Made by a program: the position numbers and the translations under genes
Notes under the pieces: model-generated
The model's database searches: none
Seen by the model: the letters and a program-made list of their open reading frames with translations, nothing else
What the model was told of the DNA's origin: nothing
Shown: piece after piece, positions 22,439 through 32,000 of the stretch
Layout of the letters: every line of letters starts with the position of its first letter
Numbering within the stretch: the first letter of the stretch is position 1
Source: Patescibacteria group bacterium
GTDB taxonomy: Bacteria > Patescibacteriota > Patescibacteriia > 2-01-FULL-39-33
Direction of reading: 5' to 3'
NCBI GenBank assembly: GCA_041662745.1
Contig: JBAZRV010000003.1
Coordinates: forward strand, 108,051 to 140,050
DNA: 32,000 bases

Positions 22439-22715
22439 TTTTCTCCTCATTTGTAAAATACGACTCAACAAATTTTTCAATTTGTTCTTTCGTTTCCGGA
22501 TCAGCGTATACTGCCACCAGAAAATCCGGTCCGCCTCGAGAAAACGGCCTCTGTAATAAACCGTGTCCCTCGGGATAATCAATGACGATTTGCGGCCAAA
22601 GTTCCAAGTTTTCAACCGTTGAGCAAAATGATCCAAGGTCATTAATAAGCTTGATAATTTGGTCAAGGCTAATTCTTCCAACATGGATTCGTTTAGATTT
22701 TTCGCTTTCCAGCAT
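22425..22715 (-). CDS. hypothetical protein (96 aa)
   Basis: GGAGG SD and the consensus promoter at 22775-22803. Its end overlaps the ATG of the next gene (AATGGACTATGA). Confidence 0.5.
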   Translation of the reverse strand: MLESEKSKRIHVGRISLDQIIKLINDLGSFCSTVENLELWPQIVIDYPEGHGLLQRPFSRGGPDFLVAVYADPETKEQIEKFVESYFTNEEKTNGL

Positions 22716-22774
22716 GAGTTTCCTCCTTTGTTTTGTTGGTAAAAAATTGTTAATGAGCAGTATTTATTGTCAGT

Positions 22775-22803
22775 ATCTTAATAAAGTAGTAGTTTTTTGT
22801 CAA
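22775..22803 (-). promoter_or_regulatory. sigma70-like promoter of the 22715-22037 gene pair
   Basis: Minus strand TTGACA (22803-22798), 17 nt spacer, TAAGAT (22780-22775). Confidence 0.5.
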
Positions 22804-22867
22804 TAGTTCTAACATCCACGTTACGGTATCAAAAAACACCCCGATGATGGGGCGTTTTTCATGAACT

Positions 22868-22986
22868 GGGTGTTTATGAACAAATCCGAACCGAATTTCA
22901 ACAAAATTCATGATCGGTCGGGCGGAATTCCCCCCCAAACCCCTCCTTCCGCCCGACCGAAACATCTGGACGGCTGAGGCGGAATT
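22868..22986 (+). repeat. repeat X (left end of the element), 119 bp, perfect inverted partner at 25752-25870
   Basis: Base-by-base comparison of 22868-22986 with the reverse complement of 25752-25870 gives 119/119 identical. It contains a 14-bp-stem hairpin tcggtcgggcggaa/ttccgcccgaccga (22914-22927/22947-22960). Confidence 0.95.
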
Positions 22987-23029
22987 GCAATTTCCAATTT
23001 TTCTTTGGCGGCGGAATTTTTAATTAGTA

Positions 23030-23596
23030 TTATATACAAATTATACTTTTGAGATAAGTGAATATCACACTATGGGCGTATAAAAATAATAAAAAAGCTA
23101 ACAATATTAATACGATTGAAATCACCCGCATTTTAGAATAATCTACTAGTAAAAATTTTGGCACCTCATAAGTATTATTATCTATACAGTGATCATATAT
23201 TTTCAAAATATTATTTTTATTAATTACTTTTTTATCATTCTTGTCTATTGGATAAATCTGTCGATTATCAATTTTTATAATCGACATGGAATAAGTGTCC
23301 GTTTCTAATATACTATTAAAATATATATAAGTTTCGATTTTTCTTCCGCGATATATTCCGGATATAATATTCGACGCAGACTCACCAATAGGATTAATCT
23401 CTCTGAAATACTGAAATTTTAAATTATGCTTTTTTGCCCATATTCTTTCTTCGATACTTTTTAAAAAGCGGTAAAGGTACCATAAAAATACAAGGATAGA
23501 CAAAGACAACACTAAAGACGCGATAGCCAGAACTGGCTCACGTACATCAGAATCTAATGTTTTTGTAAAATAACAAACTAGTGGCGTAATTGACAT
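23030..23596 (-). CDS. membrane protein with N- and C-terminal TM segments (188 aa), AT-rich cargo
   Basis: ORF with hydrophobic segments at both ends. It lies 4 nt from the upstream gene's stop. No family recognised. Confidence 0.55.
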   Translation of the reverse strand: MSITPLVCYFTKTLDSDVREPVLAIASLVLSLSILVFLWYLYRFLKSIEERIWAKKHNLKFQYFREINPIGESASNIISGIYRGRKIETYIYFNSILETDTYSMSIIKIDNRQIYPIDKNDKKVINKNNILKIYDHCIDNNTYEVPKFLLVDYSKMRVISIVLILLAFLLFLYAHSVIFTYLKSIICI

Positions 23597-23599
23597 AAT

Positions 23600-24511
23600 T
23601 TAATTTAGATGTAGCCCAAAATTTGCCCCAAGACTAATGCATTCATCTTTTGCTTCTTGAGTTTTTGCCTTATTGCATTGACTTAAATCAGAATTATAGT
23701 GCTTCATAATCACCCAAAGGTAACACAATCCAGCCTTGCTTTGTAGCTTAACGTAATCACACATTGAGAGATCGCTAATATTTCCATTAGTTGCTCGGTT
23801 GACGATGCAATAATCTCTGTAGCCATCTGGTATATCAAGGCAATTTATTGGATTGTCATTCATTATGCCAGCGGAAGAAACAATCATATTATAACAATCT
23901 CCAATATTAGACTTATTACTAATTTTAGAGCAAAGAGAAAAATTACTATCTAGGTTATTACTAATAACCCAGCCATAACAATCACCAGAATTATATTTAG
24001 TGTCTGGCCCACCGTGAGTCGTTACCCCGCCTTGGATTTTATCGCAGTAACTTATTTTATCAGCATCTAAAACCCCACTACTAGCGTTTGTCATAATTGT
24101 TTGCTGACAATTCAAATCACAATTATTTTCAGTTTGCCAATAAGTGCATTTTCCTGAACAGCAGTTACACTGTTCGCTATATAACGATTGCATTTTTTGT
24201 CCTTGACAGTACATATATTTAAAGCAGCATTCGCCATTTTGATCGCCACAACCTTTATTTAAATCACCTAATAAGGCCACTGGTTTTGTAATTGGATTTG
24301 CAGTAGAATTCGGAGTAGCCACAACCGTCTTTGGTGTAGCACTTGGTGCTTTGGTAACTACTTGATTCTGTGCGGGAGCAGTTTGAGCGGCACCCTGCTC
24401 TTTTACTGGTTCTGGCTGTGCCTGATTTTGTTCAACTTTGGAAGCTCCAAGAGAGCACCCAGTCAGCAATATGGCGAGGCCAAGGGCTGAAAACACTAAA
24501 AGTTTTTTCAT
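23600..24511 (-). CDS. secreted Cys-rich repeat lipoprotein (303 aa)
   Basis: Lipobox MKKLLVFSALGLAILLTGC, then a Pro/Gln/Ala/Thr linker, then a Cys-dense module (CGDQNGECCFKYMYC..CNCCSGKC). These are followed by about 5 repeats of the pattern C-x8-12-(D)CY-x2-V/I-x8-12. Confidence 0.7.
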   Translation of the reverse strand: MKKLLVFSALGLAILLTGCSLGASKVEQNQAQPEPVKEQGAAQTAPAQNQVVTKAPSATPKTVVATPNSTANPITKPVALLGDLNKGCGDQNGECCFKYMYCQGQKMQSLYSEQCNCCSGKCTYWQTENNCDLNCQQTIMTNASSGVLDADKISYCDKIQGGVTTHGGPDTKYNSGDCYGWVISNNLDSNFSLCSKISNKSNIGDCYNMIVSSAGIMNDNPINCLDIPDGYRDYCIVNRATNGNISDLSMCDYVKLQSKAGLCYLWVIMKHYNSDLSQCNKAKTQEAKDECISLGANFGLHLN

Positions 24512-24534
24512 AATTTTTAATTTTTATTCTAAAT

Positions 24535-25335
24535 TTACGTTGTCATTTTCAACTCAAACTCTTTGAGTTTTTCAGAGTCATATTTATCATTAATGCGAGT
24601 CAGAATATCAAATATTCCTTTCCATAAACAAATACTAAACATCAATGGATAAAGAAAAATGAATAATGTTTGATATTCATAGCCAATATAGGCACGCAAG
24701 AATATGAATATTATCGCGGCTGGAAATATGGCAAACATAGCAGAAAAAGCAGACATCATAATAACTAATATTCTAACGAGCGCTGGATTGATCTGGTTCA
24801 ATACGATATTAAATAAATATTCTTCTTGGTTCTTGATTAAGTTTGATGACAAAAAAGCTTTAACCTTTTTCATAACACCTGACTGCATGGATTTAACCGT
24901 CAAATAGCCTTCTTGAATTGCAAAATAAATTAAATTTCCAAAAACTATATATGGACTTTTTAACGGATAATGTAAAATAACTCCACTAATAGAATAATGC
25001 TGGCCACTAGATATTGCAACAATAATAAAATAAGCGAATAGAGTGATGCCACCCACAAGAAGAATTGTGACTGGAGCGTAAATAAAAACTTCTCCCCATC
25101 TAAAATAAAATATTTTAAATAAACAATAAATAGCTAAAATCACCGTCTCAAATAAATAAACAAAAAACAAAGTATAAAAATCGTAGTAATTAAAAATTAC
25201 TCCCAAAAACGGTATAAAATTATAAGTCAATATATAAAAAGATTTGAGCGAAAAAAAGTCCTTAACAAATCGGCTAAACCCCATTTTGAGTAATGGCCAA
25301 AATTCTGAAGACTTTATGGCTGGTGGGTGATACAT
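24535..25335 (-). CDS. polytopic membrane protein (266 aa), AT-rich cargo
   Basis: About 7 hydrophobic segments rich in Phe/Ile/Tyr. No family recognised. Confidence 0.6.
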   Translation of the reverse strand: MYHPPAIKSSEFWPLLKMGFSRFVKDFFSLKSFYILTYNFIPFLGVIFNYYDFYTLFFVYLFETVILAIYCLFKIFYFRWGEVFIYAPVTILLVGGITLFAYFIIVAISSGQHYSISGVILHYPLKSPYIVFGNLIYFAIQEGYLTVKSMQSGVMKKVKAFLSSNLIKNQEEYLFNIVLNQINPALVRILVIMMSAFSAMFAIFPAAIIFIFLRAYIGYEYQTLFIFLYPLMFSICLWKGIFDILTRINDKYDSEKLKEFELKMTT

Positions 25336-25386
25336 AAGTAGTAAATTGTTTATATTATAGCAAAAACTACATTCAAAAACAATAAA

Positions 25387-25593
25387 CTATTTTAGCAGTT
25401 CCCACGCTTCTACTCCTAAAGCATGAGCTAATTTGTTTAAATTTTCAAGCGTAGGATTAATATGTCCGCTTTCTACTCGACAGATATACGCACGGTCAAT
25501 TTTACTGGAACGAAAAACATCGCCTTGAGTCAGGCCTTTATCTTCCCTTATCTTCTTAAAATTATACGCTAATTTTTTACTTAATTTATGCAT
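25387..25593 (-). CDS. XRE/Cro-type helix-turn-helix transcriptional regulator (68 aa)
   Basis: IREDKGLTQGDVFRSSKIDRAYICRVESGHINPTLENLNKLAHALGV is a classic HTH_3 pattern. Start set at ATG 25593 because the track start is a TTG. Confidence 0.85.
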   Translation of the reverse strand: MHKLSKKLAYNFKKIREDKGLTQGDVFRSSKIDRAYICRVESGHINPTLENLNKLAHALGVEAWELLK

Positions 25594-25674
25594 AGTTATC
25601 CACAGGTATTTTACCAATTATTGTATATTTAAACAATATTGCTGTATACTACAATATAGATGCTTGATTTAGCA

Positions 25675-25701
25675 TTAAGAAAAAGAAAAAGTTTGATTTT
25701 G
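25675..25701 (+). repeat. repeat W (20 bp perfect core at 25679-25698), inverted partner at 25967-25993
   Basis: gaaaaagaaaaagtttgatt at 25679-25698 equals the reverse complement of 25970-25989. One copy lies upstream of the XRE gene and the other 17 nt upstream of the recombinase ATG. Confidence 0.85.
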
Positions 25702-25703
25702 TC

Positions 25704-25733
25704 CAAAATAAAGTTCGAGCCGATTTTTTTAAT
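25704..25733 (-). repeat. repeat Z' (30 bp), perfect inverted copy of recombinase coding sequence 27333-27362
   Basis: The reverse complement of 25704-25733 is attaaaaaaatcggctcgaactttattttg, identical to 27333-27362. Confidence 0.9.
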
Positions 25734-25751
25734 CTGGTTCTTTGGCGGTTT

Positions 25752-25870
25752 AATTCCGCCTCAGCCGTCCAGATGTTTCGGTCGGGCGGAAGGAGGGGTT
25801 TGGGGGGGAATTCCGCCCGACCGATCATGAATTTTGTTGAAATTCGGTTCGGATTTGTTCATAAACACCC
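25752..25870 (-). repeat. repeat X' (inverted copy of X)
   Basis: See X: 119/119 identity in inverted orientation. Confidence 0.95.
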
Positions 25871-25944
25871 AGCCAGTTCAATTTTTTCGAATTCAAAACC
25901 GAATTCCAACCGTTTTTTGGCTTAAATTCAAATTTTTTACCTTG
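25871..25944 (-). repeat. repeat Y' (74 bp), inverted copy of the recombinase 3' coding end 27363-27436
   Basis: 73/74 identical. The single difference (27368 C versus T) is a synonymous GGC/GGT change in the recombinase reading frame. Confidence 0.9.
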
Positions 25945-25966
25945 GTTCCGATTACTATCGGAACGC

Positions 25967-25993
25967 CAGAATCAAACTTTTTCTTTTTCTTTA
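25967..25993 (-). repeat. repeat W' (inverted copy of W) immediately upstream of the recombinase gene
   Basis: See W. It is preceded by a perfect palindrome gttccgat-tact-atcggaac (25945-25964). Confidence 0.85.
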
Positions 25994-26006
25994 ATTCAAT
26001 CTAATT

Positions 26007-27452
26007 ATGAAATACTTTCTTTACGCCCGCAAGTCAACAGACGAAGAGGAGCGTCAAGTCCTTTCTATTGAAGCCCAGCTCGCAGAGCTGATGGAGTTAG
26101 CCACCAAAGAAAAATTGGAAATTGCGGACTCGCTCTGCGAGTCCAAAACCGCCAAAGAACCAGGCCGAAAAATTTTTGGCGAAATGCTCTCTCGGATTGA
26201 AAAAGGTGAAGCCGACGGAATTTTAGCGTGGCACCCTGATCGATTGGCCAGAAATAGCGTGGACGGCGGTAAAATCATCTACATGGTGGATATCGGCCAG
26301 ATCAAAACGCTAAAATTCCCGACTTTTTGGTTTGAGAATACTCCGCAAGGGAAATTCATGCTCAATATCGCTTTCGGTCAGAGCAAATACTATGTTGATA
26401 ATTTAAGCGAAAATGTAAAACGCGGTTTCAGGCAAAAGCTAAGGCGCGGCGAATATCCTAACAAAGCGCCAATCGGTTATCTTAACGACCGTACAGCCAA
26501 AACCGTGCTTATTGATCCTCTACGCGCCAAGCTGATAATAAAAATGTTTGAAATGTATAACACAGGAGAATTTTCGCTTAAATTTCTTAAAGATAAGTTT
26601 TGCGATATCGGCTTGACCAGCAAGCGAGGCAAAATCCTGACTGTCGGCATGATTTCCAATATATTGAGCAATCCCTTTTATTGCGGAGTATTCAGGTTTA
26701 ATGGCGAAAAGTATCAAGGCAAATACGAGCCAATTATTTCCAAAAAGCTTTTTGATGAAGTTCAGGCGGTAATGAAAGATCGAGGCCGGCCATTAGGGCA
26801 AGATAAACACGACTTCGCCTTTACCGGACTGATGAAATGCAAATGTGGCGCCTGCATTACCGCCGAACGGCAAAAAGGCCATATCTATTATCGCTGTACG
26901 AAGAAAATGGGAATCTGCGACGAAAAATATATTCGCGAGGAAAACTTGCTGGAGCAATTCCATGGCCTTTTTCAAAAAGCTGTTTTGCCTGATGACTGGA
27001 TTCGTAATATGCTCGCCAAACTCGGCGAAGAAGAGAAAAGCGCTATCAAATCATCTTCTAGTCTGATTGATGAGGTAAAAACGCAAATAACGGTCACTGA
27101 AGGCAAGCTGGACAAGCTACTTGATGACCGATTAGAGGGTTTACTCGACAAGGACGACTATTTGCGCAAGAAAGAACAACTCATCAATCAGAAAATTGAT
27201 TTGGAGGACAAAATCCAGTCAATCAGGCAAACAGGAAATAATTGGCTCGAACCGATGAGAGAATTCCTTTTCGCCAATAAACAAACCAAAAAAGTCGCCA
27301 ACGACGGCGACCTTTTGGAAATCCGAGCATTTATTAAAAAAATCGGCTCGAACTTTATTTTGCAAGGCAAAAAATTTGAATTTAAGCCAAAAAACGGTTG
27401 GAATTCGGTTTTGAATTCGAAAAAATTGAACTGGCTGACTGACTCGGTCTAG
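26007..27452 (+). CDS. large serine recombinase (481 aa)
   Basis: Resolvase catalytic N-terminus MKYFLYARKSTDEEERQ..SIEAQ (nucleophile Ser in YARKST) and GILAWHPDRLARN. It also has a recombinase domain, a zinc ribbon (CKCGACITAE...YYRCTKK..C) and a coiled-coil tail. No SD or obvious promoter upstream. Confidence 0.9.
   Translation: MKYFLYARKSTDEEERQVLSIEAQLAELMELATKEKLEIADSLCESKTAKEPGRKIFGEMLSRIEKGEADGILAWHPDRLARNSVDGGKIIYMVDIGQIKTLKFPTFWFENTPQGKFMLNIAFGQSKYYVDNLSENVKRGFRQKLRRGEYPNKAPIGYLNDRTAKTVLIDPLRAKLIIKMFEMYNTGEFSLKFLKDKFCDIGLTSKRGKILTVGMISNILSNPFYCGVFRFNGEKYQGKYEPIISKKLFDEVQAVMKDRGRPLGQDKHDFAFTGLMKCKCGACITAERQKGHIYYRCTKKMGICDEKYIREENLLEQFHGLFQKAVLPDDWIRNMLAKLGEEEKSAIKSSSSLIDEVKTQITVTEGKLDKLLDDRLEGLLDKDDYLRKKEQLINQKIDLEDKIQSIRQTGNNWLEPMREFLFANKQTKKVANDGDLLEIRAFIKKIGSNFILQGKKFEFKPKNGWNSVLNSKKLNWLTDSV
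27333..27436 (+). repeat. repeats Z (27333-27362) and Y (27363-27436) inside the recombinase 3' end
   Basis: The partners of Z' and Y' described above. Y ends in the core TGAACTGGCT. Confidence 0.9.
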
Positions 27453-27733
27453 AACCGATCCATATCAAGTATTATAAGGGCTTTTCGAAAATATTTCCAG
27501 AGGCGATTTGAGGCGTCTCGGTCGGGGTAAAATATACTATGAAATGCGACAAATGCGACAGTACTTTGGAACTGTCTAAATATAGAATTTTGAGCAACAA
27601 AATGAGACAAATGAGACACAAAATGAGGTTTTCATAATGTAATATAAAAGTGTAATTTGTATCTAATTTTAGATTAAAAAAGAGCGAGACACACCTAAAA
27701 ATAACTGTCTCACTTTGTATAAAATTTTTGTGC

Positions 27734-27762
27734 TTGACAAACCTCTCAAAATAATATATAAT
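27734..27762 (+). promoter_or_regulatory. consensus sigma70 promoter of the radical SAM operon
   Basis: TTGACA (27734-27739), 17 nt spacer, TATAAT (27757-27762). Confidence 0.65.
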
Positions 27763-27855
27763 ATCATGTTAGTCAAAATGGCTAATTACTAAGAGGTACA
27801 TTAACATTTTACGGTATTTAACCAATCAACCCAACCCCAAACAAGGAGGAAATCC

Positions 27856-28968
27856 ATGAGTACTACGAACATGAGTTTTGCTATCAGACCGACAGACCGC
27901 TGTAACCTGAATTGTGACTATTGCTACGCCAGAGTCGCCGATCCAAAAGACATGAGTCCGGAGACACTGAGGTTGGTTTTGCAACGGATCGCCGATAGCT
28001 ATCCGGGGCATGTTACAATTAGTTGGACTGGCGGAGAACCGCTGCTGATGGGTCCCGATTTTTTTCAACGAATCGCCGAGATTCAGGCAGAGTTGCCGCA
28101 GGTGCAGTTTACCAATATTCTGCAAACCAATTTGACATTACTTCAGGATTGGGTCATCACTTTTTTGTCTGCTCACAATTGGCAGGTGCGCACCAGTCTC
28201 GATCTTCCGCCTGCCAATCATGACGAGCTGAGGATCAAAGGAAATTTCAATGCGACGATGATGCGCATACGGCGCCTACAAGAAGCCGGCGTGCCGGTCA
28301 ATATCAATACCGTCATAACGTCGAAAAACGTCGGATCAGCACCGGAGATATACTGGTTTCTTAATAACAACAGAATCAACAGTTTCTCTGTTTCGCGATT
28401 CATCTTGCAGGGTAACGGGGTGCAAAATGCCCATCTGGCAATTAAGGAGTCGACTCGTTTCGGCCGTTTCTTGATTGAATTGTTTGATCTTTGGATGGCC
28501 GATACCAGCGAAACGAAAATACGGAAAATCACGCCACTCAATACATTGATGGAAGCCTGCGAGTATTACATGCGCGGGAAAGTAAATCCGGAAGCGTGTT
28601 TCCATTGTCAAAATCAGGTTTACGCAATCGGACCGACTGGTGACATTTATCCGTCTTGCAACAAGTTTTTTGGCTTGCCCGGCACTTGCCTGGGCAACAT
28701 CTCTGAACTGGAGCTGGCGGACGTCACTGATTCTCCTGAACGCGTTGACTTTCTGGAACAGGTCAAGAAAGTTGGCGAGAAGGTTTGCATCGGCTGTCAG
28801 TACATGCCGATCTGCCGCGGTGGCTGTTACTATGTCGCTTTTGCCACTCTACCTGAATTGGACAAGATTACGAAACGTGACCAATTCTGCAAGGGATACT
28901 ATTTGGTGTTTGATCATATCATCGATTATCTGCAGAAAATGCGTCGAACAGAGGAGGCAATCCAATGA
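27856..28968 (+). CDS. radical SAM/SPASM-domain enzyme (370 aa), anSME-like architecture without an N-terminal RRE
   Basis: CNLNCDYC at residues 16-23, GGEPLL, and C-terminal auxiliary-cluster Cys motifs (CFHCQN..., CIGCQYMPICRGGCYY, FCKGYY). AGGAGG SD present. Confidence 0.85.
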   Translation: MSTTNMSFAIRPTDRCNLNCDYCYARVADPKDMSPETLRLVLQRIADSYPGHVTISWTGGEPLLMGPDFFQRIAEIQAELPQVQFTNILQTNLTLLQDWVITFLSAHNWQVRTSLDLPPANHDELRIKGNFNATMMRIRRLQEAGVPVNINTVITSKNVGSAPEIYWFLNNNRINSFSVSRFILQGNGVQNAHLAIKESTRFGRFLIELFDLWMADTSETKIRKITPLNTLMEACEYYMRGKVNPEACFHCQNQVYAIGPTGDIYPSCNKFFGLPGTCLGNISELELADVTDSPERVDFLEQVKKVGEKVCIGCQYMPICRGGCYYVAFATLPELDKITKRDQFCKGYYLVFDHIIDYLQKMRRTEEAIQ

Positions 28969-29978
28969 CTGCGATAACGACCATACCAGTGTTAAGATCG
29001 CTGAAGTTCGCGGTCGGCTATGACTGCAATATGCATTGCGGTTTCTGCCTTCAGCAAATGAGCGACCGAAAACCGATTCTGCCATTCGAGCTGGCTCATA
29101 AAATCCTGACGGAAGAAATGGTGGCTCGGGACGTACGACTTATTACTTTGACTGGCGGTGAACCGACCTTCGGCCCCTATCGTGAATTATCACTTAAGAT
29201 CATCAGGCTTGCCACGAGTCTGGGCATGGAGACGTCGATCTTCACTAATGGTGTTTTGCTTGATGATGCGACTCTCGATGAATTCAAGGTAGCCGGTCTG
29301 AGCCGTTTCCGGGTTAGTTTGTATGATCCGATTGATTGGACTGACGTCAGGAAACTGATCGCCGGATTGCGCCGGCGTGACTGGCCGACGATGTTCAAAT
29401 ACACAGTAACGAAAGAGAACTATCCGCTATTGGATTCTGTTCTCAAAATGTTGCCGGAAGCTGACATAGATTGGTTCCAGATTAAGCCGTACAATCGCTT
29501 GGAGATTGAACAGATCGACCAGCAGTACGAGCTTGAACCCAAGCAGGTACTGGCGATGGCCAAAACTTTGCTCGGTTTCCGCAGGAACTTTCCAGCGATC
29601 AAAGTTGATCTTCTGCCGCTCTGCTATGAATTCCTGGTGGATGACAGTTTGACTACCGATAACCTGAGTCTCTGCCACTGCGGCAAGGGTTCTCGCGGTT
29701 ACATGGTCATTGATCCCGAGGGCGAGGTTCGTATCTGCGGCGCTTATCCTGATCCGATCGGCAACGCCAATACCGACACCATCGCTGATTTGTGGATTAA
29801 CCATCCGCTATTAGCGCAAGTCAGGAATCTGGCAAATAGGCCGAGGCCAATCGAATGCCAGGACTGTAGCCATTGGGAAAAATGTGCTGCAACGGACTGC
29901 CATAGTGCGACCTTTGCCAAGTTCGGCAATTTCAATCATGGTAATCCGCAATGTCCGCTTATAGCCGGACGACAATAA
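28965..29978 (+). CDS. second radical SAM/SPASM(twitch)-domain enzyme (337 aa)
   Basis: CNMHCGFC, TGGEPTF and C-terminal CHCGKG...ICG, CQDCSHWEKCAATDCH. ATGA overlap with the upstream gene and a GAGGAGG SD. Confidence 0.85.
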   Translation: MTAITTIPVLRSLKFAVGYDCNMHCGFCLQQMSDRKPILPFELAHKILTEEMVARDVRLITLTGGEPTFGPYRELSLKIIRLATSLGMETSIFTNGVLLDDATLDEFKVAGLSRFRVSLYDPIDWTDVRKLIAGLRRRDWPTMFKYTVTKENYPLLDSVLKMLPEADIDWFQIKPYNRLEIEQIDQQYELEPKQVLAMAKTLLGFRRNFPAIKVDLLPLCYEFLVDDSLTTDNLSLCHCGKGSRGYMVIDPEGEVRICGAYPDPIGNANTDTIADLWINHPLLAQVRNLANRPRPIECQDCSHWEKCAATDCHSATFAKFGNFNHGNPQCPLIAGRQ

Positions 29979-29999
29979 CGTCAATAAACGTACATGATA

Positions 30000-30037
30000 C
30001 GCCGAGAACAAGGAAGTTCTCGGCGTGTTTTTATTTT
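30000..30037 (+). terminator. rho-independent terminator of the radical SAM operon
   Basis: cgccgagaac-aaggaa-gttctcggcg followed by a T-rich tract (tgtttttatttt). Confidence 0.7.
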
Positions 30038-30116
30038 GTCAAAATTATAGTTTCCAACAGCTTATCAACTCAGGCCCCCTGGACTCCCTAGCGGGGTTGC
30101 GTCATTCATTAGTTAT

Positions 30117-31430
30117 ATGAATGAAACAACAGCGCCTGTGGGGGCTACGGGCACGATAATAGCCCCGCCAAAGGTCAAGTACTGCCTTTATGCAAGGAAA
30201 TCAACTGAGTCAGAGGAGCGGCAGATCCTATCCATAGACAGCCAGATCAAGGAGATGCTCTTATTGGCAGAAAAGGAGGGTTTAGATGTCGTAACCATGA
30301 AGCGTGAATCGCACTCAGCTAAGGAAACCGGCCAGCGACCAGTTTTTAATGAGATTATTGAGGAGATTAAGTCAGGTCAGTACAATGGGATTCTGACTTG
30401 GGCGCCAGATCGCATTAGCAGGAATGCCGGTGACTTGGGTAAAATCGTAGATTTGATGGATTCCGGGCTATTAAAAGACATCCGGACTTACGGCCAGAGA
30501 TTCGGCAATAATCCTAATGAGAAATTCTTACTGATGATCTTGGGATCTCAGGCTAAGCTGGAAAATGACAATAAAGCGGTCAATGTTAAAAGAGGACTAC
30601 GAAGCCGGTGTGCCATGGGTTGGAGGCCGGGCCAGGCGCCAACCGGTTACCTTAATGAAAAACATGTCGACAAAAAATGCCAATGCCGGTTAGATCCCAA
30701 AAGAGCGCCGATTATCAAACAGATGTTTGAAAAAGTCGCTAATGAGGGCTGGAGTGGCCGAAAAGTCTACCGCTGGCTTAAAGACATTGATTTTAAGACT
30801 AAAAACGGCAAGCACCTGGTGCTTGCCAATATCTATATTCTTCTTAGAAATCCATTCTATTATGGCGAGTTCGAATATCCAGTCAAAAGTGGCGTTTGGT
30901 ATACCGGCAAACATACGCCGATTATTACTAGGGAGATTTACGATAAGGTTCAGCTATTGCTGAGCGACCGCTATGTATCCAGAACGGAAAGCAAGGAATT
31001 CGCTTTCACCAAATTGTTCAAATGCGGCTATTGCGGATCGGGCATCTCGGCCGATGAGAAATTTAAGAAACTAAAAGATGGCGGCACCAACCGCCATGTC
31101 TATTACTTTTGCACCAAAGCGAGGGATATTGATTGCAAAAATCAGCCGATCAATGAAACCGATTTGATCAGCGAGCTGAACCGCTTAATGGACAAGATTG
31201 ATCTGGATGAGCTTGGCGTCAAGAAAAAATTAGAGGATGAAATGAGAAGGTATAACCGATTCAATGTCGGAGTGCTAGGCAAAAAGCAAAAGGAATTCAA
31301 TCAAGATGTGGATATTAGAAATTATGCAAAATACCTGCTTAGAGATGGCACTATTTTGGAAAAGAGAGAATTATTGGGTTGCCTGAAAAGTAAGGCGATA
31401 TTGAAGGATAGGAAAATTATTTTGGAGTAG
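30117..31430 (+). CDS. large serine recombinase, paralog of 26007-27452 (437 aa)
   Basis: KYCLYARKSTESEERQILSIDSQ, GILTWAPDRISRN and the zinc ribbon CGYCGSG...YYFCTK..C. The N-terminal roughly 170 residues align with the first recombinase with many identities (by eye). Confidence 0.9.
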   Translation: MNETTAPVGATGTIIAPPKVKYCLYARKSTESEERQILSIDSQIKEMLLLAEKEGLDVVTMKRESHSAKETGQRPVFNEIIEEIKSGQYNGILTWAPDRISRNAGDLGKIVDLMDSGLLKDIRTYGQRFGNNPNEKFLLMILGSQAKLENDNKAVNVKRGLRSRCAMGWRPGQAPTGYLNEKHVDKKCQCRLDPKRAPIIKQMFEKVANEGWSGRKVYRWLKDIDFKTKNGKHLVLANIYILLRNPFYYGEFEYPVKSGVWYTGKHTPIITREIYDKVQLLLSDRYVSRTESKEFAFTKLFKCGYCGSGISADEKFKKLKDGGTNRHVYYFCTKARDIDCKNQPINETDLISELNRLMDKIDLDELGVKKKLEDEMRRYNRFNVGVLGKKQKEFNQDVDIRNYAKYLLRDGTILEKRELLGCLKSKAILKDRKIILE

Positions 31431-31483
31431 AAAAGTAATCAAAAATAATGCCTTCATAAAACTGTGGCATTTAGCTAATAATT

Positions 31484-31768
31484 TTACATTACACCCTCAG
31501 GACAATCAGTAATTATTTTTGTTGCTCGTTGTTTTCTATCCATCTCCTCTGCCTGTAAAGCCGAATTCAAATCGGCCAAATCATCAACTATTTTTGTTGC
31601 ATCTTTATAAACATTTTTTGCTTCATCATTCATTTTTGAAAGACTTATTTTAGGATCAAGCAATTTATGAACAAATCTATTTCTAATATTTTTATTAAAT
31701 TTTTTAAGATTTGCAATTAACTCCTTATCTTCGCAGTATTTATCTAGTTCAAAAATTAAATTTCCCAA
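31484..31768 (-). CDS. hypothetical helical protein with an RxxxxH (HEPN-like) motif; possibly 5'-truncated
   Basis: IRNRFVHKL fits Rx4H. The frame is open upstream to a TAA at about 31850 but contains no ATG, and the track start is a TTG. Confidence 0.3.
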   Translation of the reverse strand: MGNLIFELDKYCEDKELIANLKKFNKNIRNRFVHKLLDPKISLSKMNDEAKNVYKDATKIVDDLADLNSALQAEEMDRKQRATKIITDCPEGVM

Positions 31769-31955
31769 AGTATATTTTGAATATTTTTCTTCACTGGGGT
31801 CAATATAAAGAATTGTGTCAAATTTACTAAGTGTTAGACTTCCTGAAATTAAAAATTGATAAGTAACGATTGTTGAGACTGTAAAATATTATGTGTAAAT
31901 GGTATCTTGGGATGTAGGACGATTGGCGTCCTGCCTAACCCAAGATCCTATGCCT

Positions 31956-31990
31956 AAAACAAAAAGAAGGCCGGCTGTCGATGAGCCGGC
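31956..31990 (-). terminator. rho-independent terminator for a minus-strand gene lying beyond the right edge
   Basis: gccggct/agccggc stem (31970-31976/31984-31990) followed on the minus strand by CTTCTTTTTGTTTT. Confidence 0.5.
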
Positions 31991-32000
31991 GAATGAGTTG

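Follow-up and report, generated by a model that had tools for sequence, protein, structure and literature searches.

Putative inverted attP copies and covarying complementary patches around a large serine recombinase gene of Patescibacteria

Large serine recombinases (LSRs) are the main tools for the insertion of large DNA segments into genomes, and their directionality is thought to rest on the geometry of the attP and attB sites together with a protein factor. A locus in a Patescibacteria group bacterium (GenBank assembly GCA_041662745.1, contig JBAZRV010000003.1, positions 108,051 to 140,050 of the forward strand; this whole stretch of 32,000 nucleotides is referred to as the window) raises the question of why the DNA directly upstream of an LSR gene should consist of inverted copies of other parts of the same element. 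The element is an integrative one of ∼4.6 kb that occupies positions 22866-27437 of the window, and its recombinase is encoded on the plus strand at 26007-27452 (481 aa, MFA6228167.1, assigned to an ultra-small Patescibacteria bacterium whose genome was assembled from a metagenome). A reading made from the sequence alone, hereafter the sequence-only reading, had proposed that the upstream block is a shufflon-like store of three alternative 3' ends for the recombinase gene. The evidence presented here makes it probable that the locus is an LSR element with two inverted copies of attP, invertible segments, and a regulatory network of pairing sequences. Comparisons draw on 167 related loci with 47-94% protein identity (designated by L and a number), obtained from scans of metagenome and genome collections.

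The recombinase carries three Pfam domains, all above their cut-offs: PF00239 Resolvase (3e-19), PF07508 Recombinase (4e-14), and PF13408 Zn_ribbon_recom (1e-6). They follow one another as catalytic Resolvase, Recombinase, and zinc ribbon, the order that membership of the LSR class requires. Comparison with the PDB and NCBIfam gave distant matches only; CcrB, XisF, and CcrA fell far under the cut-offs, and the single PDB match spans the catalytic domain alone. The domains, a short crossover core, and an offset of +5 between half-sites, the latter two described below, place the element in the LSR class, and catalysis between attP and attB is predicted.

Every repeat pair that the sequence-only reading had listed is present, and BLAST comparison within the window gives E-values from 8e-65 to 1e-5, far beyond chance. 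At the left end of the element lies the outer arm x (22866-22986), the P-type half of a split attachment site, which begins with the CTG core at 22866-22868 and is the reverse complement of x' (25752-25872, plus strand) at 121 of 121 positions. The flanking sequence changes exactly at this CTG, and L084 shows the same boundary. At the right end, Y (27363-27437, plus strand) forms the P' arm of a split attP through which the recombinase open reading frame (ORF) reads, and it closes with the CTG core at 27435-27437. Its reverse complement y' (25870-25944, plus strand), the P' half of an internal attP whose CAG core is at 25870-25872, matches at 74 of 75 positions; the lone mismatch is synonymous (GGC/GGT), as had been claimed. 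Within the block, the x/x' and y'/Y repeats overlap by the three bases of this core. Z (27333-27362, plus strand), directly before Y, encodes the conserved KKIGSNFIL motif. The earlier statement that Z and Y make up the last bases of the ORF needs adjustment, as the repeats are real but together (105 nt) end 15 nt before the ORF does.

Three sites can be read on one strand, L·x, Y·R, and Y·x (L and R being the left and right flanks), and only the CTG/CAG core is common to all three. Such a set corresponds to attL, attR, and one additional attP that is intact. The bulk of the internal block is this additional attP (x'·CAG·y'), inverted and unbroken; the other copy, which overlaps the 3' end of the recombinase ORF, was split by integration into L|x (22866) and Y|R (27437). 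The earlier recognition of the Y-X junction in the block as the joint of the circle, and hence as attP, stands. The x' arm, as the P-type half of this internal attP, contains a G+C-rich hairpin of 14 bp (25778-25791 / 25811-25824) as well as the motif GTTCGG, 23 nt away from the boundary with y', and an imperfect dyad (25836-25856 / 25890-25910) is centred on the attP core. A T-loop mimic, GTTCGR, is present in every x' arm and lies 23 nt from the junction, compared with 18 nt for the GTTCGA of the tRNA T-loop, a difference of exactly +5 in 55 of 65 loci. An attP half-site motif that is offset 5 bp outward relative to that of attB is the established rule for serine integrases, as reportedly observed by Rutherford et al. 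(2013) and in work on LI integrase. The 5-nt half-site shift, the core dyad, and the B-type spacing of the R flank indicate that x'·y' is a bona fide attP and that attB is the 3' end of a tRNA gene or a mimic of it. Both copies of x also share an ATG-initiated frame (25773-25925 on the plus strand, 22750-22965 on the minus strand, MFRSGGRRGLGGNSARPIMNFVEIRFGFVHKHP...) that reads outward over the core into differing sequence; it is probably not a gene because it overlaps the G+C-rich hairpin.

The relatives point to the 3' ends of tRNA genes as the normal targets of these recombinases. In 89 loci, a tRNA gene (Gln, Asn, Arg, Leu, Ser, His, Ala, Met, or Lys) starts within a few nucleotides of the end of Y. 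The close relatives L002-L004 and L084-L087 (91-94% DNA identity) have the same upstream block, and in L002-L004, L084, and L085 the sequence switches to an opposite-strand tRNA-Gln(ctg) at the base equivalent to 27437; because of this switch, the relatives' proteins end in ...NWLRDLDSNQDNSFQRAASYR, which is antisense tRNA. The host-side flank R of the window (27438-27723) is a B-type half-site that mimics a tRNA T-arm, with GTTCTA 18 nt from the boundary, and ARAGORN found no tRNA in this flank. An unoccupied copy of the R site is present in L084 at ∼2286-2605 (terminator hairpin-G|CTG|ACTGACTCGG...), and the occupied and empty sites differ exactly at the core; the empty copy hence marks 27437/27438 as a genuine junction. 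The element of L088 has the same R junction and the same protein end, ...NWLTDSV. Read in reverse complement, the sequence that encodes the IGSNF motif of Z resembles a tRNA T-arm (GGTTCGAGCC), and CGAGCC/GGCTCG-like boxes are also found at 26726-26741 / 27234-27249 in the recombinase gene. The C-terminal region of the recombinase may have grown by read-through of old tRNA-like attachment arms.

A comparison with homologous elements, which the sequence-only reading had recommended, reveals that the internal block is family-wide. The y'/Y repeat is present in 133 of the 167 loci, with a median length of 91 nt (range 46-159); identity is 100% in 76 of these repeats and 97% or more in 111. The x/x' pair (at least 60 nt and up to 334 nt) is found in 59 loci, with x' abutting y' by an overlap of 3-9 nt in 43. 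The common layout, [x cargo x'][y' recombinase Y], mostly stands beside tRNA genes in elements of 2.4-10.9 kb, and two closed genomes (L113 and L158) carry it. The arms evolve in concert: in the clade of the window, the two y arms of one element show 0-1 differences over 75 positions, against 1-22 when different elements are compared. Confirmed candidate stretches number more than 500 in each of two collections, as lower bounds, mostly from Patescibacteria, which are also the main hosts of the relatives, together with some other phyla. Homologues run into the thousands (7,997 scored). Viral contigs yielded only two partial matches to the recombinase family, and a reading of the enzyme as a phage integrase was dropped on account of this near absence. 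Full-text literature searches found no description of the layout in the searchable literature. In many relatives the contig is cut off within a y or x arm (L009, L011, L013, L014, L021, L023, L034, L045, L048, L049, L064, L075, L083, L088, L092, L115, L122, L129, L134, L138, and L162).

The remainder of the upstream block consists of shorter patches that are complementary to sequences in or near the recombinase gene. W (25677-25701, plus strand) pairs with W' (25967-25991, plus strand), located 16-40 nt 5' of the recombinase ATG; 25677-25698 is the reverse complement of 25970-25991 at 22 of 22 positions, and the match over 25677-25701 is 24 of 25. The z' patch (25704-25733, plus strand) is the reverse complement of Z at 30 of 30 positions and holds the T-arm-like GTTCGAGCC. 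The 18-nt link that follows (25734-25751, plus strand) is not filler, being the reverse complement of recombinase positions 26146-26163 (link') at 18 of 18 (E 0.002). A fourth patch, r' (22987-23012), sits beside x at the left end of the element and is complementary to recombinase codons ∼33-41 (r, 26100-26125) at 25 of 26 positions overall, with a stretch (22987-23008) that matches 26104-26125 at 22 of 22. On the plus strand, r, a 19-nt hairpin (26126-26144), and link' are found inside the coding region of the catalytic domain. A perfect palindrome, gttccgat-tact-atcggaac (25945-25964), which is kept in L002-L004, separates y' from W' and is possibly an operator.

The offsets of W, z', link, and r' are the same in ∼50 relatives, where the patches covary. 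Relative to the gene, W' is found 15-44 nt 5' of the ATG, r at +83..119, link' at +137..156, and Z at +1326..1360. In 16 relatives r' stands beside x and pairs with the gene at the offset of r, the link pairs at its own offset with covariation in 19, and z' is conserved in position and covaries in 25. W is wholly different between relatives yet always the reverse complement of the W' of its own element. On sequence grounds, z', link, W, and r' are best described as covarying complementary patches rather than crossover sites.

Self-complementarity extends through the recombinase gene, which contains seven perfect intragenic inverted repeats of at least 11 nt, compared with 0.5 expected and a maximum of three in 100 synonymous-codon shuffles. 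Its fold energy is -463.6 kcal/mol against -371.4 ± 9.3 kcal/mol in codon shuffles (z = -9.9), and the upstream block alone gives z = -7.8. The inverted repeats of a second recombinase in the window, of the cargo genes, and of the neighbouring genes are not above those of their own shuffles. The intragenic helices are nested, perfect over 11-18 bp, and conserved in position in 60+ homologues with compensatory synonymous and amino-acid changes, such as those between the NLSEN codons at gene positions 394-409 and positions 565-580, and those between the K codon AAG/AAA and GCT/GTT. Single helices join gene positions 394-408 to 564-578 and 720-735 to 1228-1243. Helices were detected sequence by sequence; a strict alignment-column search, hampered by offsets that shift between subfamilies, picked up just the three most conserved. 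An Rfam scan of 22500-27800 on both strands gave no match at E ≤ 1. A promoter-like site on the plus strand (25628-25655) matches the consensus at 9 of 12 positions, as a consensus match only, and points into the block, so the whole block would lie in the recombinase leader.

Among the relatives, segments bounded by the inverted repeats are found in both orientations. L023 and L025 (relatives at ∼56% identity, not the window's own element) have identical recombinases, an identical 6.4 kb host flank, and an identical tRNA-Asn, and the cassette from y' to Y is reversed between them (L023 3532-9971 is the reverse complement of L025 16321-9882, and L023 9843-11404 equals L025 8378-9939). L080, with the order tRNA-Leu|y'-recombinase-Y|x-cargo-x', represents the same circle opened at the other attP copy. 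The cargo segment is flipped in L007, the only clear case among the ∼50 loci with patches. In L077 (33-1940), which has no x arm, an inverted pair of tRNA-Ser genes (gct and tga) encloses the cassette; this looks like the product expected if the intact internal attP had recombined with a second tRNA gene as attB and inverted a stretch of the chromosome. These arrangements indicate that both attP copies are used. The self-flipping recombinase switch offered by the sequence-only reading is supported for Y/Y' by the reversed cassette of L023/L025. Exchange products of Z/Z', like those of W/W', are found in none of the 167 loci. As separate observations, the long arms of L007 (6571-9947) have decayed to 84-89% identity and its short patches have become direct repeats that retain 100% identity (28/28, 24/24, 36/36); L084 holds a solo x-r' remnant at 4398-4548; and L042, L071, L109, and L158 have different x-type arms on either side of one cassette. 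The remnant and the unlike arms point to tandem or partial elements that accumulate at the sites.

The proposed explanation is that two attP copies of opposite orientation bracket the recombinase gene within the element. The excised circle would then consist of two unique segments, cargo and recombinase, parted by two inverted repeats that each bear an attP. Because the arms are long and identical, either segment could invert and either attP copy could serve for integration, and the recombinase cassette would hence come to lie in both orientations relative to the target. The orientation would decide whether the upstream context of the recombinase gene is its own leader or a tRNA gene, with a change in the last few codons as a side effect. 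The inverting activity may be host homologous recombination or the LSR itself. As a best guess, W, z', link, and r', together with the intragenic helices, would control recombinase expression at the level of nucleic acid, for instance through an antisense leader or a state-dependent 3' end resembling that of lambda sib. A bolder proposal, possible but doubtful, is that the timing and direction of the LSR are set by a fold (of a structured transcript or a single strand) together with the inverted attP pair, and not by a protein directionality factor, or that the LSR itself inverts attP-type sites. The y'-to-Y cassette would, on this proposal, be a conserved giant hairpin of compensating, Watson-Crick-only helices that run through coding sequence, and the short patches would tie the cassette to the ends of the cargo.

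Several observations weigh against an LSR element with invertible segments and a regulatory pairing network. Alternative arrangements are rare in contigs (∼4 of 133 for the cassette, 1 of ∼50 for the cargo) and one arrangement dominates; none was found for the window's own lineage, and the 491-aa 'Y|x' form is absent from its protein clusters. Canonical LSRs are not known to join attP to a second attP or to attL, and inversion may therefore be plain host homologous recombination between long repeats and no adaptive switch. The pairing shows no G·U excess (the mismatches are 9 G·T, 13 A·C, and 20 other), which weakens the regulatory RNA reading, and the W:W' stems are purely Watson-Crick; the absent G·U signature gives no support for RNA and no proof of DNA. 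Moreover, no single strand could form the sets {x:x', y':Y}, {r:r', W:W'}, and {z':Z, link:link'} all at once. The flanks of the window also fail to correspond to a single target: the L flank (22802-22865) resembles the flank of the tRNA-Gln(ctg) site of L084 (5892-5956; 77.5% DNA identity over a longer match that includes x and r'), whereas the R flank (27438-27723) matches the different, unoccupied L084 site 3.3 kb away. The element thus sits between the halves of two target sites, which argues for a past deletion or exchange between two element copies.

Shufflon-like diversification, with alternative C-terminal exons stored in the block and three functional tails produced by inversion at Y/Y', Z/Z', and W/W', is very improbable. 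The three predicted tails do translate exactly as written in the sequence-only reading and are open reading frames, and the Y'..Y segment is known in both orientations in a relative. However, the tails of 4-30 residues are unconserved, not exon-like, and set by whatever sequence lies beyond the crossover; those of relatives are antisense tRNA (for example RDLDSNQDNSFQRAASYR, ...DSNQ..., ...ESNP...). The conserved protein ends near ...IGSNFILxGKK, before Y, and the residues after ...NWL are read-through, so that the tails are by-products and not stored protein ends. The six repeat pairs (x, y, z, link, r, and W) are six unrelated sequences with no shared site of the sfx kind, the missing Z/Z' and W/W' products count against such shuffling as well, and the only recombinase of the element is a serine enzyme and not a tyrosine enzyme of the Rci type. 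An assembly or amplification artefact in the form of a fold-back chimera, the other fate that the sequence-only reading had allowed for the block besides a one-off rearrangement, has a negligible chance of being correct: many contigs do begin or stop within the arms, but an independent assembly (L001, ENA ERZ27249449) equals window 22758-32000 base for base, the same layout recurs across many projects, in >130 loci, as well as in two closed genomes, and covariation between elements is impossible as the product of an artefact. Family-wide conservation and covariation likewise ruled out chimeras of multiple-displacement amplification and a miniature transposon bounded by W/W' that would resemble a miniature inverted-repeat transposable element (MITE).

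Scars of successive integrations had also been suggested; on this account the block and the patches would be non-functional debris of nested or tandem insertions, or of an old inverted duplication of the cassette, kept similar by gene conversion only. It can appeal to the fact that r', link, and z' are literally pieces of the recombinase gene, to the tandem and partial elements already mentioned (the solo x-r' of L084 and the two different x arms of L042, L071, L109, and L158), and to host recombination, which is expected to homogenise long inverted repeats. It is nevertheless quite improbable, because the same pieces recur at the same offsets and co-evolve in relatives with only 50-60% protein identity, because the patches, at 18-36 nt, fall short of the length needed for efficient gene conversion and are still perfect even in L007, and because the non-coding W differs wholly between elements and is always complementary to its own W'. 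No single-step history of simple inversions or deletions of a second cassette copy fits the order W-z'-link-x'-y'. The main rival for the role of the network is a single-stranded DNA form, in which the network would fold an intermediate of transformation, transfer, or replication and the x'y':Yx stem would rebuild a duplex attP. Strict Watson-Crick pairing without an excess of G·T over A·C, the nested and coaxial intragenic helices, and the attP duplex that stacked x:x' and y':Y stems would form all speak for it, and Patescibacteria are naturally competent. It remains unlikely, as the structure is confined to the recombinase gene and its flanks with the cargo unstructured, the three sets of pairs exclude one another in one strand, and the element has no Rep or relaxase gene (its only Pfam/NCBIfam matches are the XRE regulator and the recombinase). 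Serine recombinases also cut both strands, and a folded circle would consequently leave hairpin-capped chromosome ends.

An XRE-family helix-turn-helix regulator (25387-25617, minus strand; Pfam HTH_3, E 6e-12) is divergent from the recombinase, and a promoter-like site for it found by consensus scan (25648-25620, minus strand) overlaps the plus-strand site that points into the block. Three cargo ORFs occupy 23030-25335 on the minus strand and encode a membrane protein of 188 aa, a Cys-rich lipoprotein-like protein of 303 aa, and a multi-pass membrane protein of 266 aa; none matches a family in Pfam or NCBIfam, and their G+C content is 0.29-0.38 compared with ∼0.44 in the flanks. The 303-aa protein (23600-24511, minus strand) has a lipoprotein-like signal (...LTGCS) at its N-terminus. 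Cargo differs wholly among relatives: L084 has a peptidase C14 together with a cyclodipeptide synthase, and another relative has a methyltransferase together with a helicase. No recombination directionality factor (RDF) is recognisable, as only the XRE regulator and the recombinase match known Pfam and NCBIfam families, though RDFs are diverse and no dedicated RDF search was made. Directly to the right of the R flank lie two radical-SAM/SPASM genes (27856-28968 and 28965-29978), followed by a second LSR of a different type (30117-31430, 437 aa) without flanking inverted repeats or internal helices. The tRNA-like R site may come from the end of an older element next door (27856-31430).

These findings outline a very widespread, uncharacterised LSR clade with canonical site geometry and three unreported features: a second, inverted attP that is still intact after integration, recombinase and cargo segments able to flip, and a recombinase gene sequence shaped by long-range pairing as much as by the encoded protein. 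They raise the questions of how tiny elements without a recognisable directionality factor control a 'one-way' enzyme and why such easy retargeting among tRNA genes is possible. Should control by a fold, or inversion of attP-type sites by the recombinase itself, prove true, it would constitute a new control principle for LSRs. The architecture also accounts for the frequent contig breaks beside tRNA genes in these organisms, as a systematic cause of such breaks in metagenome-assembled genomes of Patescibacteria.

The element shares its three-domain recombinase with known LSR elements (the phiC31, Bxb1, and A118/LI integrases, CcrAB of SCCmec, and XisF), and likewise the short core crossover without target duplication, the attP dyad, a half-site motif that lies 5 bp further out than in attB, and an attP that adjoins or overlaps the recombinase gene. 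It departs from them in that an inverted pair of attP copies brackets the recombinase gene, the arms of 75-330 bp having stayed identical, and in the heavy self-complementarity of the coding sequence; similarity to characterised members is distant. In the Hin/Gin/Cin/Pin systems, a serine recombinase gene can also lie within an inverted-repeat segment and flip with it (Hin), and inversion changes the promoter context, as proposed here. Those enzymes of ∼190 aa act at 26-bp hix/gix sites with a Fis enhancer, in contrast with a 481-aa LSR and arms of 75-330 bp that are copies of the integration site, in an element that also integrates into tRNA genes. The R64 shufflon has inverted repeats and a 3' coding end that changes on inversion; its tyrosine recombinase Rci is encoded outside the invertible segments and acts on one repeated 19-bp sfx consensus, and its conserved alternative exons belong to another gene, pilV, none of which applies here. 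The yeast 2-micron circle (FLP/FRT) resembles the predicted circle in its two long inverted repeats with a recombination site and two unique segments that isomerise, whereas FLP is a tyrosine recombinase and the circle a replicating plasmid that inverts for copy-number amplification; the present element has no replication genes and integrates. In lambda int/sib, a regulatory sequence lies beyond att, 3' of the recombinase gene, and the mRNA 3' end differs between the integrated and excised states. The parallel, an analogy only, is that x and r' come after Y solely in the circle or when the orientation is the alternative one. Lambda differs in that its Int belongs to the tyrosine recombinases and its sib consists of a single RNase III hairpin.

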